From the NCBI RefSeq assembly GCF_030013595.1, contig NZ_CP122768.1: a stretch of DNA of 64,000 nt. One strand, written 5' to 3'. Below are positions 1 to 39,680 of the stretch, one piece after another. The position numbers and the translations under genes were made by a program. Under the pieces are notes generated by a model. It was given only the letters and a program-made list of their open reading frames with translations, ran no database searches and was not told the DNA's origin. Numbering within the stretch: the stretch's first letter is position 1; each line of letters opens with the position of its first letter. The DNA comes from Escherichia coli. GTDB taxonomy: Bacteria; Pseudomonadota; Gammaproteobacteria; Enterobacterales; Enterobacteriaceae.

Positions 1-5435
<5,435 letters not shown>

Positions 5436-18556: not shown

Positions 18557-19195
18557 ATGCCCGGGCGCTTTGAACTAAAACCAACCCTGGAGAAAGTCTG
18601 GCACGCGCCGGACAATTTTCGCTTCATGGACCCGCTGCCGCCGATGCATCGTCGGGGGATCATTATTGCCGCCATTGTATTGGTAGTCGGATTTCTGCTT
18701 CCATCTGATGATACGCCCAACGCGCCGGTGGTGACGCGTGAAGCGCAGTTAGATATTCAGTCGCAATCACAACCACCGACAGAAGAACAGCTGCGGGCGC
18801 AATTAGTCACGCCACAAAATGATCCTGATCAGGTGGCTCCGGTCGCTCCAGAACCAATACAGGAAGGCCAGCCAGAAGAGCAGCCGCAACCCCCCCAAAC
18901 GCAACCATTCCAGCCAGATAGCGGAATTGATAATCAATGGCGCTCTTACCGTGTCGAACCCGGTAAAACGATGGCACAGCTGTTCCGCGACCACGGGCTG
19001 CCCGCTACCGATGTCTATGCAATGGCGCAGGTAGAAGGCGCGGGTAAGCCGCTGAGTAATTTGCAAAACGGGCAGATGGTGAAAATCCGCCAGAACGCCA
19101 GCGGCGTGGTGACGGGCTTAACCATTGATACGGGGAATAATCAACAGGTCCTGTTTACCCGCCAGCCGGATGGCAGTTTTATTCGTGCGCGGTAG
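18557..19195 (+). CDS. ytfB: OapA/LysM-domain cell-division-associated protein YtfB (212 aa from MPGRFELKP; alternative start at 18521)
   Basis: ORF 18521-19195; single TM segment, Pro/Gln-rich linker, C-terminal OapA-like domain. Confidence 0.85.
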
Positions 19196-19329
19196 ATGAA
19201 GGGTCAACCAGAAGCCAGCTAAGGAGCGTCTCTTTGATGACCTTACGTCTGGCTTCCAGTGCCTGGGGGGAAACCATACTGATGTGTTGACATCCTCCAC
19301 GCCCTGAAGGACGTGGATCCCTGCTACGT

Positions 19330-20538
19330 TCAGGCTGTCGCCTGAATCATTTCGGTGGGTTCCTGCTTCAACGAGCGGCCTGACTGCACCATCTCTCCAC
19401 AGGCAAGAACGGCGTGCCCCGCCGCTAAAATGTTACGAGCGCCATTTACATCGGCGTTCGCTGTATATCCACATACCTGGCATCTGAATTTAATTTGTGA
19501 CAGGCGATTTTCTTTCGCTGTATGACCACAGCACGCGCAACGCTGGCTTGTGTACGCTGGCGGAACAGCAAGCACCTGACCGCCACGCCAGAGCTGCTTG
19601 TACTCAAGCTGGCGGCGCATTTCATACCAGCCCTGATCCAGTATCGAACGGTTTAAACCTGATTTTGCCCGGACATTGCGCCGCGGCTGGCTGACCGTAC
19701 CCGCTGCTGACTTTGACATGTTGCTGACCTTCAAATCCTCAATGACTATCATTGCGTGGTTTTTGCTGACGGTCGTTGTGACTTTGTGAAGGTAGTCCCT
19801 GCGGATATTTGCGATACGGGAATGCAGTCGCTGTATTTTGCGTTTCTGCTTCTGCCAGTTATTGCTGAATTTGACCTTGCGGCTTAACTGTCGCTGAAGT
19901 CTCGCCAGCTTCTTCTGTTTTTTCTGAAAACTGTTTACAGGCTCAAAGACTGTGCCATCTGACAGCGTGGCGAGTTTAACCACGCCAGCATCCAGCCCGA
20001 CCATTGATGCTGAAGGATGAACCGGAGTTGATACTTCACTTTCTGTCTGAATACTGATGTACCACTTACCGCAGGACTGGCTGACCGTGACATTTTTCAC
20101 AACACCCGTGACCTGACGGCTATTCCGGTAGCGCATCCAGCCCAGTTTCGGCAGAAAAATACGGCTGTTTTCCTGATAGAGCTTAACGCCCTACGGGTAG
20201 CGGAATGCATCATTCTGTCCCCGCTTTTTGAATCGGGGAAAAGCAGCCCGCTTCTGGAAGAAGTTTTTGTAAGCCCGCTCAAGGTCTTTCAGTGACTGTT
20301 GCAATGGCTGTGACGGGGCATCTTTAAGCCATTGCGTTTCAGTGGCATTTTTCCACTCAACCAGCCAGGAAGCCATTTTCCCGTAAGGGATGTATTTATT
20401 ACCGGCCTCATGATTCTCATTCTGAAGCGCCAGAGCACGATTGAAAACGAAACGACATGCGCCTGCGAAGCGCCTCATTTCACGCTCCTGTTGACCACCG
20501 GGTCTTAACTGGAATTTAAATGCCTGTCGTCGTTTCAC
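19330..20538 (-). pseudogene. tnpB: tnpB (IS605 OrfB / TnpB RNA-guided nuclease family), ~402 codons interrupted by one in-frame TAG at 20191-20193
   Basis: N-terminal ORF (GTG start) VKRRQAFKFQLRPGGQQE...AFRYP, then TAG, then in the same frame GVKLYQENSRIFLPKLGW-MRYRNSRQVTGVV...; C-terminal part has RuvC-like region and CxxC...CxxC zinc finger ([39 protein letters not shown]). Confidence 0.8.
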
Positions 20539-20545
20539 AGGTCAA

Positions 20546-21000
20546 ATGATACTTTGGTCTGTGAAAAAAGAAACCTATATCCGGCGTGGAAGGTATTGTG
20601 TTTTCCTGATGCATGTTCACCTGGTCTTTGTCCCAAATACCGACGCCAGATTTTTGACCATGACGCGACAGAAAAACTACGCACTTACTTTTCAAATGTA
20701 TGTGCTGATTTTGAAGCTGAACTGGTTGAAATGGATGGCGAACCAGATCACGTCCATTTGTTAATTAAATATCCTCCCAAACTGGCGATATCCAGTCTGG
20801 TAAACAGCCTCAAAGGCGTATCGGGTAGGTTACTGCGACGAGATCGACCAGATATTGCAGTCAGGTATTACTACAAAGGCGTTTTGTGGAGTCCTGGCTA
20901 TTTTGCCAGTAGCTGTGGAGGTGCGCCAATATCCGCCATCCGTCAATCCATTGAACAACAGCAAACACCTGGTCAGGTGGAAAACCGCGCCGTATATCCC
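20546..21000 (+). pseudogene. tnpA: tnpA (IS200/IS605 Y1 HuH transposase), frameshifted; 3' limit uncertain
   Basis: Frame 1 MILWSVKKETYIRRGRYCVFLMHVHLVF, then a 1-nt frame change in a T-run (~20620-20630) into CPKYRRQIFDHDATEK...DHVHLLIKYPP (HuH motif)...[16 protein letters not shown]; a Ser occupies the position where family members have the catalytic Tyr. Confidence 0.7.
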
Positions 21001-21357
21001 CGCCCTGAAGGACGGGGTTTTACGGCACACCGGATAAACCAGGCCAAGCGTATGCTGGTTGATCAAATAATATCCCCCAAGCGCAGCAATATTAATATAC
21101 ACCTGCAATGGGTCGATATCTGGCTTAAAAATATTGTGTTTCTTCCCTTCATCCAATAAGGATTCCATTAACTGCAAGTGCGCATGATTAATTTCTAAGA
21201 GACGCTGTGATTTTACATAATGCACACCTTTACTTTGGTTTTCACTATGCACAATTTTTAAAAACCAAGGATTAGCAATATAATATATCCTAGGTAAAAT
21301 CGATGATTTTTTCAATGGCTTTTTGTGGCTGGTTAACCTGCTGATTAACAAACGCAC
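20830..21357 (-). CDS. Hypothetical ORF (175 codons) starting in the low-GC islet and reading into the IS element end; possibly a ytfA-like gene remnant
   Basis: ORF track 175 aa [17 protein letters not shown]...; roughly the first 108 codons lie outside the IS hairpin at ~21017, the rest is antisense to tnpA. No recognisable domain by eye. Confidence 0.3.
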
Positions 21358-21603
21358 CGATACCGACAGCGTAGAATAATTACATACCGCACAACAAGAA
21401 TGTATGGTGTAAGGCGTTGTCAGTCATCTCCCTCCCTGGGTGCATCTTTATATCCGTGATGAGCGATTTTTGATATTAATATCTTTTACTATCCGCTATT
21501 TTCACCACTTCAGAAAACAAACTTATTTTTATTAATATCGATTATTTATTCTGTGCACATTCAGCTGCGATATTTATAAAAAAATTAAACAGGCAAAAAT
21601 ACA

Positions 21604-38959: not shown

Positions 38960-39680
38960 CAGCTATAGACAAATAAATATCCTCCGGCATAGCCGGAGGT
39001 TTTTCAAATGCGCCTGTAAGGCTCTGTTACCAGCCGCGCCCTAACAGGCGCATACGATCTGACATTTGCATTCAACTTCGTTACTTACGGCCCGTAAACG
39101 GGCTGCCCGGATATGGAATCGATAACTGCTCCCCCATTTTATCCTCTTCAAGCTGGTGCTTTATGTAGTCCTGTATCTTCGCCGTGTTCTTACCCACCGT
39201 ATCGACATAGTACCCTCGGCACCAGAACTCCCTGTTTCTGTATTTGAATTTCAAATCCCCAAACTGCTCGTAAAGCATCAGACTGCTTTTCCCTTTCAGA
39301 TATCCCATAAAGCCGGATACGCTCATTTTGGGTGGGATTTCCACAAGCATATGGATATGATCTGCGCAGCACTCTGCTTCCAGAATCCGTACGCTTTTCC
39401 ACTCACACAGCTTTCTCAAAATACTGCCTATCGCCCTACGCTTCTCTCCGTAAAACGCCAGTCTTCGGTATTTCGGCGCAAAAACTATGTGATATTTACA
39501 GTTCCAGCGGGTGTGCGCTAAGCTCTTTTCGTCCCCCATTGGGACCCCCTTTTGATTTCTTGTTTGACACTTGCAGTTGCCAGACCGCAAGGTGTTTTAA
39601 CAAATCAAAAGGGGTTTTAATAACTGGCTCAAAGCTGAAAGCTTTCCGGAACCCCCAGCCTAGCTGGGGGTTTTCTGTGC
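38960..39680 (-). mobile_element. IS200: IS200-type insertion sequence (single tnpA, ~0.7 kb); boundaries approximate
   Basis: tnpA reading frame with IS200-type protein sequence; hairpins near both ends (cccccagcctagctggggg at 39651-39669; cctccggcatagccggagg at ~38969-38991); lies between the rlmB terminator and the yjfI start. Confidence 0.7.
39081..39539 (-). CDS. tnpA: IS200 Y1 (HuH) transposase TnpA, 152 aa from MGDEKSLAHTRWNCKYHIVFAPKYRR
   Basis: ORF 39081-39590; HuH motif HIHMLVEIPP, conserved PKYRR and C-terminal Tyr region (KIQDYIKHQ). Confidence 0.88.
   Translation of the reverse strand: MGDEKSLAHTRWNCKYHIVFAPKYRRLAFYGEKRRAIGSILRKLCEWKSVRILEAECCADHIHMLVEIPPKMSVSGFMGYLKGKSSLMLYEQFGDLKFKYRNREFWCRGYYVDTVGKNTAKIQDYIKHQLEEDKMGEQLSIPYPGSPFTGRK

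Follow-up and report, generated by a model that had tools for sequence, protein, structure and literature searches.

An Amber-Interrupted tnpB (insQ) Pseudogene in an IS609 Copy within ytfA of Escherichia coli

The IS609 Element and Its Insertion Site

In the window, that is, the whole stretch of 64,000 nucleotides of Escherichia coli DNA that was analysed, a copy of IS609 sits inside ytfA on the chromosome, between ytfB and yjfZ, with cycA, fklB, ytfB, yjfZ, rplI, rpsR, priB and rpsF as the surrounding genes. The borders of the element were read against strains PU-1 and OHT76-1, in which ytfA is uninterrupted and forms a 215-aa TetR/AcrR gene at the same position. The element and the remains of its target are laid out as follows:

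19287..21033, minus strand: IS609 (IS200/IS605 family), 1,747 bp, with RE at 19287 and LE at 21033
21034..21038, minus strand: TTTAT, a target/TAM-like motif directly 5' of LE
19179..19286, minus strand: 3' fragment of ytfA (TetR/AcrR regulator), split off by IS609
21034..21328, minus strand: internal fragment of ytfA on the far side of IS609, the 5' part of the gene being deleted

The whole element is 97–98% identical to copies whose tnpA is named by PGAP as "IS200/IS605-like element IS609 family transposase", and it keeps the same gene order, with the divergent arrangement of tnpA on the plus strand from 20546 and tnpB on the minus strand from 20538. The IS609 copies at ydcO and at gltX-yfeD have identical termini (CCGGTG...GGATGTCAA), and all three independent sites read TTTAT, then CCGGTG...GTCAA, then the flank, while the empty site reads TTTAT followed by CACATCAG; a target duplication is absent when the empty site is compared with the occupied ones. 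The sequence shows the imperfect sub-terminal hairpins that characterise IS200/IS605 elements (CCCCGTCCTTCAGGGCGGGG at LE and CCACGTCCTTCAGGGCGTGG at RE), terminal inverted repeats are lacking, and the insertion lies 3' of the short conserved motif.

Further rearrangement is seen around the insertion. Across 19179-19286 and 21034-21420 of the window, the 5' part of ytfA is lost and yjfZ comes next instead, and the neighbours found in the empty-site strains (3-ketoacyl-ACP reductase, sugar phosphate isomerase, and enoyl-CoA hydratase) are missing; in OHT76-1, the intact fklB-ytfB-ytfA region lies on a record of 373 kb that is designated a plasmid. Elsewhere in the window, an IS200-type element of about 0.7 kb with tnpA only lies between yjfI and rlmB (approximately 38978-39680), and it contains an intact Y1 transposase open reading frame of 152–169 aa on the minus strand (39081-39590). 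This second element is missing from the otherwise 99.97% identical genome of strain HCP5S3_I2, where the two BLAST segments at the junction overlap by 9 bp, and the element ends given here are approximate; its presence suggests a recent transposition by which the window strain can be told apart.

The tnpB Reading Frame and Its Internal Stop

Translated on the minus strand from 20541 down to 19327, the sequence stays in a single open frame that is broken by one internal stop only, reading ...NDAFRYP, stop, GVKLYQENSRIFLPKLGWMRYRNS.... The parts of this frame are:

19330..20538, minus strand: insQ/tnpB pseudogene, running for 402 codons from GTG to the terminal TGA, broken at codon 116 and recognised by Pfam and structure matches
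20191..20193, minus strand: amber codon TAG, codon 116, with CAG (Gln) as the ancestral codon from comparison with intact copies
20194..20538, minus strand: N-terminal product of 115 aa with a GTG start, covering WED strand beta-1 and the REC helical domain (limits through alignment with ISDra2 TnpB)
19330..20136, minus strand: downstream open reading frame in the same frame, 268 aa from the ATG of Met135 to the end of the gene

The initial annotation had described a single in-frame TAG in an otherwise open tnpB frame of about 402 codons, and translation bears this out, with the stop at 20193..20191. The open reading frames it listed at 20191-20538 and 19330-20136 do share one frame, their junction reads AFRYP followed by the stop as it had been given, and the interval that it marked, 20137-20193, covers the TAG and the 18 codons that separate it from the next ATG.

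With glutamine placed at the stop, the read-through protein is matched in Pfam by PF12323 (HTH_OrfB_IS605, E 3e-14), PF01385 (OrfB_IS605, the RuvC part, E 8e-35) and PF07282 (Cas12f1-like TNB, the zinc-ribbon, E 4e-24). The RuvC triad (D183 in GLD, E267 in IED, and D363 in NAD) and the zinc ligands C334, C337, C353 and C356 are all kept in frame 3' of the stop. The TnpB domain architecture is thus present together with its catalytic and zinc-binding residues, and an uninterrupted full-length open reading frame is lacking. Because of these Pfam matches and a DNA identity of 97–99% to thousands of annotated insQ/tnpB genes, the frame is judged to be that of a genuine gene and not a chance open reading frame. 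By homology it belongs to the TnpB/InsQ family (IS200/IS605 OrfB, RNA-guided endonuclease), of which it is, as read from the sequence, a pseudogene. The pseudogene status is already known: PGAP names the gene insQ ("RNA-guided endonuclease InsQ/TnpB family protein") with an IS609-family tnpA as its neighbour, and RefSeq/PGAP flags the identical copy in HCP5S3_I2, ACR3H5_RS23110, as "insQ, pseudogene, internal stop", the tnpA beside it being flagged as "frameshifted".

The tnpA Gene of the Same Element

The second gene of the element is also damaged. It was aligned with the copies of strain CH10268 and of K-12:

20546..20970, plus strand: tnpA (Y1/HUH transposase) pseudogene, "frameshifted" in PGAP

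A deletion of 1 bp lies between 20632 and 20633, and from the end of the first beta-strand (between HVHLVFV and PKYRR) the frame is shifted. Pfam Y1_Tnp matches the gene in the shifted frame only, and the codon of the catalytic tyrosine, which other copies carry in IRQYIEQQ, has changed from TAC to TCC (Ser) at 20947-20949. A functional Y1 (HUH) TnpA is thereby lost. Because tnpA is frameshifted and its catalytic tyrosine is replaced by serine, the IS609 copy of the window is predicted to be immobile and, to judge from these lesions, cannot excise or transpose autonomously.

Other IS609 copies show irregularities of their own. TnpA frames that look intact, such as that of CH10268, have no stop inside the element and run through LE into the flanking DNA, which may be the reason why PGAP labels all of them as "missing C-terminus". 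The K-12-type insQ at ydcO (WP_000826416.1; 1544-2752 of the extracted locus) is annotated as intact, but it reads CAYCG instead of CACCG, so that Cys336, among the four predicted TNB zinc ligands, is a tyrosine, and the neighbouring tnpA contains a stop within its frame; the K-12 reference InsQ may thus be functionally impaired too, despite its open frame.

The Ancestral Codon and the Kind of Mutation

Comparison with orthologues, one of the checks that the initial annotation had proposed, was run at codon 116. All six intact copies inspected, drawn from three loci (ytfA, ydcO, and gltX-yfeD), carry CAG (Gln) there; the copies compared include those of CH10268, C4 and T-HYM1 at ytfA, a K-12-type copy at ydcO and that of 2015C-4136CT1 at gltX-yfeD. 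Since CAG stands in every intact copy examined, the change at codon 116 is, on this comparison, a C-to-T nonsense transition, CAG to TAG, that turned Gln116 into an amber codon. The inactivation of tnpB by one nonsense codon, as first proposed, therefore agrees with the orthologues, and the existence of intact 402-aa proteins (WP_061128813.1 and WP_073462023.1) identifies the two frames as one gene, not two separate ones. A Dcm (CCWGG) hotspot for C-to-T change was considered and rejected, as the ancestral context CCCGCAGGG holds no CCWGG.

In the lineage of the window, the derived changes of tnpB are L4R, Q116*, G286R and S349I, with zero derived synonymous changes, a pattern that fits relaxed constraint, with counts too few to test. 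Little decay has followed since the stop arose: the catalytic and zinc residues are intact and there are just three other derived amino acid changes (L4R, G286R and S349I).

Distribution and Age of the Amber Allele

The spread of the allele was surveyed with a 96-nt query centred on the TAG, which matched 5,043 records. The exact TAG haplotype occurs in four of them, all independently assembled complete genomes, against about 4,900 in which the gene is present: HCP5S3_I2 and LCP30S3_I5, from pig faeces in the UK, and VCSW7 and VCSW5, from soil in Hong Kong. The 1,951-nt region around the element (window 19250-21200) is otherwise common, with matches in 5,424 of 5,426 complete E. coli genomes and at least 80% of it covered in 4,309. 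The closest relative of the window among complete genomes is HCP5S3_I2 (NZ_CM149870.1), which is 100% identical over the 1,951-nt IS609 region and 99.97% identical over 24.3 kb, the differences being 7 substitutions and the one extra IS200-type insertion of the window. A second match to tnpB is absent in HCP5S3_I2, whose genome has a single place matching the gene; therefore, no intact IS609 tnpB would be at hand in this strain to supply the protein in trans.

The carriers are less alike than an allele of very recent origin would suggest. In and around the element, 49 of 3,213 local alignment columns (1.5%) differ between the window and VCSW7, and the carriers have in common not only the TAG but also the tnpA 1-bp deletion and G286R; VCSW7 and VCSW5 have moreover acquired a second stop in tnpB, K8* (TAA). 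Because the allele is common to isolates that are 1.5% apart and is linked to other decay, it is neither private to one strain nor very recent, and the "very recent inactivation" of the initial annotation is contradicted by this divergence, by the shared tnpA frameshift and G286R, by K8* in the Hong Kong strains and by the gene conversion in VCSW5 described below. As judged from these alignments, the amber mutation either predates the divergence of the carrier lineages or has moved between them by recombination.

In VCSW5 (NZ_CP082355.1), both IS609 copies, at ytfA and at gltX-yfeD, carry K8* (TAA) together with Q116* (TAG); the two tnpB genes lie at 2696-3904 and 1001-2209 of their extracted locus segments. 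The copy at gltX-yfeD is a mosaic, in which the 5' part of about 190 codons, with both stops within it, is identical to the ytfA copy and the 3' part is typical of the locus (T210, N365 as AAC, and P389). This mosaic structure indicates that ectopic gene conversion carried the dead allele into the second IS609 copy of the strain.

Explanations of the Internal Stop

The observations are very probably explained by a plain nonsense pseudogene, in which Gln116 of tnpB/insQ became an amber codon in an old, immobile copy of IS609. The element would have been inherited vertically at a fixed chromosomal site inside ytfA, where codon 116 changed from CAG to TAG. Translation would then end after 115 residues, comprising WED strand beta-1 and REC, and by the structure of ISDra2 TnpB, a product that is without most of WED, the whole RuvC and the zinc-binding TNB should have no RNA-guided nuclease activity. 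The frameshift and the change of the catalytic tyrosine to serine in tnpA would leave the element immobile as well. The allele presumably goes back to a single event in the common ancestor of a small clade; it was then retained as other lesions were added, and in one strain (VCSW5) gene conversion transferred it to a second copy. The whole picture would correspond to the ordinary decay expected of an insertion sequence that has ceased to transpose.

An error of sequencing or assembly, under which the true base is C, the codon CAG and the gene intact, could be entertained in that a single base sets this copy apart from thousands of others; its probability is negligible, given that the same TAG is found in four complete assemblies from two unrelated sampling sources and in both copies of VCSW5, and that it is linked to the shared derived tnpA deletion and G286R. 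This answers the doubt of the initial annotation as to an assembly error. Quite improbable, too, is a conditional gene whose amber codon is read through, by a supE-type tRNA that restores glutamine or by natural read-through, to give a functional full-length TnpB. The suggestion had been made at the outset and stands in principle: the supE tRNA (glnV with a CUA anticodon) would insert glutamine, the ancestral residue, and restore the ancestral protein exactly, which is a coincidence, and the catalytic residues downstream are all intact. Basal UAG read-through in E. coli, however, is well under 1%, and the tRNA-Gln genes argue against suppression. They were read in the near-identical HCP5S3_I2 in place of the genome of the window itself, whose tRNA genes within the window are three tRNA-Gly(GCC) only. 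The operon metT-leuW-glnU-glnW-metU-glnV-glnX of HCP5S3_I2 carries tRNA-Gln anticodons TTG, TTG, CTG and CTG, the TTG belonging to glnU and glnW and the CTG to glnV and glnX, and no tRNA-Gln with a CUA anticodon was found among these four genes. Exact matches to a synthetic supE tRNA were obtained in 154 records, and among the matches listed, all 60 of 60 are K-12-lineage laboratory strains or derivatives, such as C600, DH5alpha, DH1, J53, S17-1 and others. The sister strains have furthermore gained another stop, K8*, which is TAA and not TAG, a pattern expected of a gene free from selection. On the wild-type anticodons of glnV and glnX in the closest genome, supE-type suppression in the natural host was rejected, and suppression of the tnpB amber codon is only hypothetical.

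A split gene, in which translation restarts at the ATG of Met135 (20136) and the 268-aa RuvC and TNB fragment works alone or with the 115-aa fragment, is about as improbable as read-through of the stop. An ATG in the same frame, 18 codons past the stop, and an intact frame beyond it would allow for such a restart, but no Shine-Dalgarno-like sequence is present in the 30 nt upstream of this ATG, and for this reason a restart at Met135 is unlikely and the downstream frame (19330-20136) is probably not translated. The 115-aa N-terminal fragment is the sole tnpB product for which translation is expected. The larger fragment would in any case be without residues 116-134 and the first WED strand, and by analogy with ISDra2 TnpB, WED and REC would be needed for binding of the TAM and the omega-RNA (PMC10097598); the intact orthologues, moreover, are single 402-aa proteins. 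The plain nonsense pseudogene is accordingly the reading that is carried forward here: a genuine but routine pseudogene in a decaying insertion sequence, for which no new mechanism is needed and which is not a case of recoding or suppression.

The Putative Omega-RNA

By its position, as known from other TnpB systems, a guide-RNA scaffold can be placed at the 3' end of tnpB:

19287..19457, minus strand: putative omega-RNA (reRNA) scaffold, overlapping the tnpB 3' end and RE

The guide of this putative omega-RNA would be expected, by analogy, to continue into the flank from 19286 downward, and TTTAT together with CACATCAGTATGGTTTC would be the candidate target of IS609 TnpB in the window strain. 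The stretch from RE (19287) to 19452 is invariant among six aligned ytfA-locus copies, and the region folds with a modest z of -2.1 in a structure that includes the RE hairpin. An Rfam search over 19274-19457 (minus strand) gave sub-threshold matches only, namely HgcC (23.9 bits against a cut-off of 50), sot0042 (17.1 bits against a cut-off of 88) and RAGATH-18, and thus no curated omega-RNA family above threshold at the tnpB 3' end and RE. HgcC, sot0042 and RAGATH-18 have been described from transcripts that overlap the 3' ends of IS605-type orfB genes, and the weak matches probably reflect the putative omega-RNA scaffold.

Selection on tnpB and Possible Uses of the Amber Strains

A rough Nei-Gojobori estimate among intact tnpB copies gives dN/dS of 0.20–0.43, which points to a degree of constraint on TnpB, also in copies with a defective tnpA; for relaxed selection in the amber lineage, dN/dS yields nothing firm, with 4–19 differences per pair. 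Selection on tnpB is hinted at by three observations: 4,867 of 5,426 complete genomes have a copy with at least 80% coverage of the gene, the copies occupy a few fixed loci, and dN/dS is 0.2–0.43. That selection maintains the IS609 tnpB of E. coli, although the accompanying transposase is as a rule defective, is nevertheless unlikely. If it were true, the amber clade (the window strain, HCP5S3_I2, LCP30S3_I5, VCSW7 and VCSW5) would amount to a natural knock-out, with HCP5S3_I2, which has no IS609 tnpB other than the amber copy, as the best candidate, and the amber strains would offer a way of studying which role a TnpB without TnpA plays for the cell or the element.

Among E. coli strains, nearly all of which otherwise keep the gene intact, the carriers of the amber allele, above all HCP5S3_I2, would be natural IS609-TnpB nulls, and they might be used as controls when the function of TnpB is studied. 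The two copies of VCSW5 offer, in addition, a clean example of what appears to be the spreading of stop codons between IS copies through gene conversion.

Comparison with Known Systems

The nearest known relatives are the other insQ/tnpB genes of IS609 in E. coli, namely InsQ/YdcM of K-12 at ydcO (WP_000826416.1) and the ytfA-locus orthologues WP_061128813.1 and WP_073462023.1. They represent the same gene and element, with DNA 97.5–99.2% identical to that of the window, the same length, the same ends and the same divergent tnpA-tnpB arrangement, and the ytfA-locus orthologues share the insertion site of the window copy as well. The window copy differs from the intact ones in TAG for CAG at codon 116, in L4R, G286R and S349I, and in the frameshift and the Tyr-to-Ser change of tnpA. 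In the literature, IS609 TnpB is merely listed among purified candidates (PMC12781874).

The comparison of structure is with ISDra2 TnpB from Deinococcus radiodurans (PDB 8bf8, 8exa and 8h1j), to which the window gene is homologous over residues 2-376 (E 1.5e-55), with the same WED-REC-WED-RuvC-TNB order, the same D/E/D triad and the same CxxC...CxxC zinc site. In ISDra2 TnpB, WED comprises residues 1-12 and 117-176, REC 13-116, RuvC 185-326 and 360-375, and TNB 327-359; contacts to the TAM and the omega-RNA are made by WED and REC, in which point mutations eliminate cleavage (PMC10097598). By these limits and the alignment, residue 116 of the window gene maps to approximately the REC/WED boundary. 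ISDra2 TnpB is an active RNA-guided nuclease with TTGAT as its TAM, whereas the window gene breaks off at the REC/WED boundary and the IS609 that carries it adjoins TTTAT.
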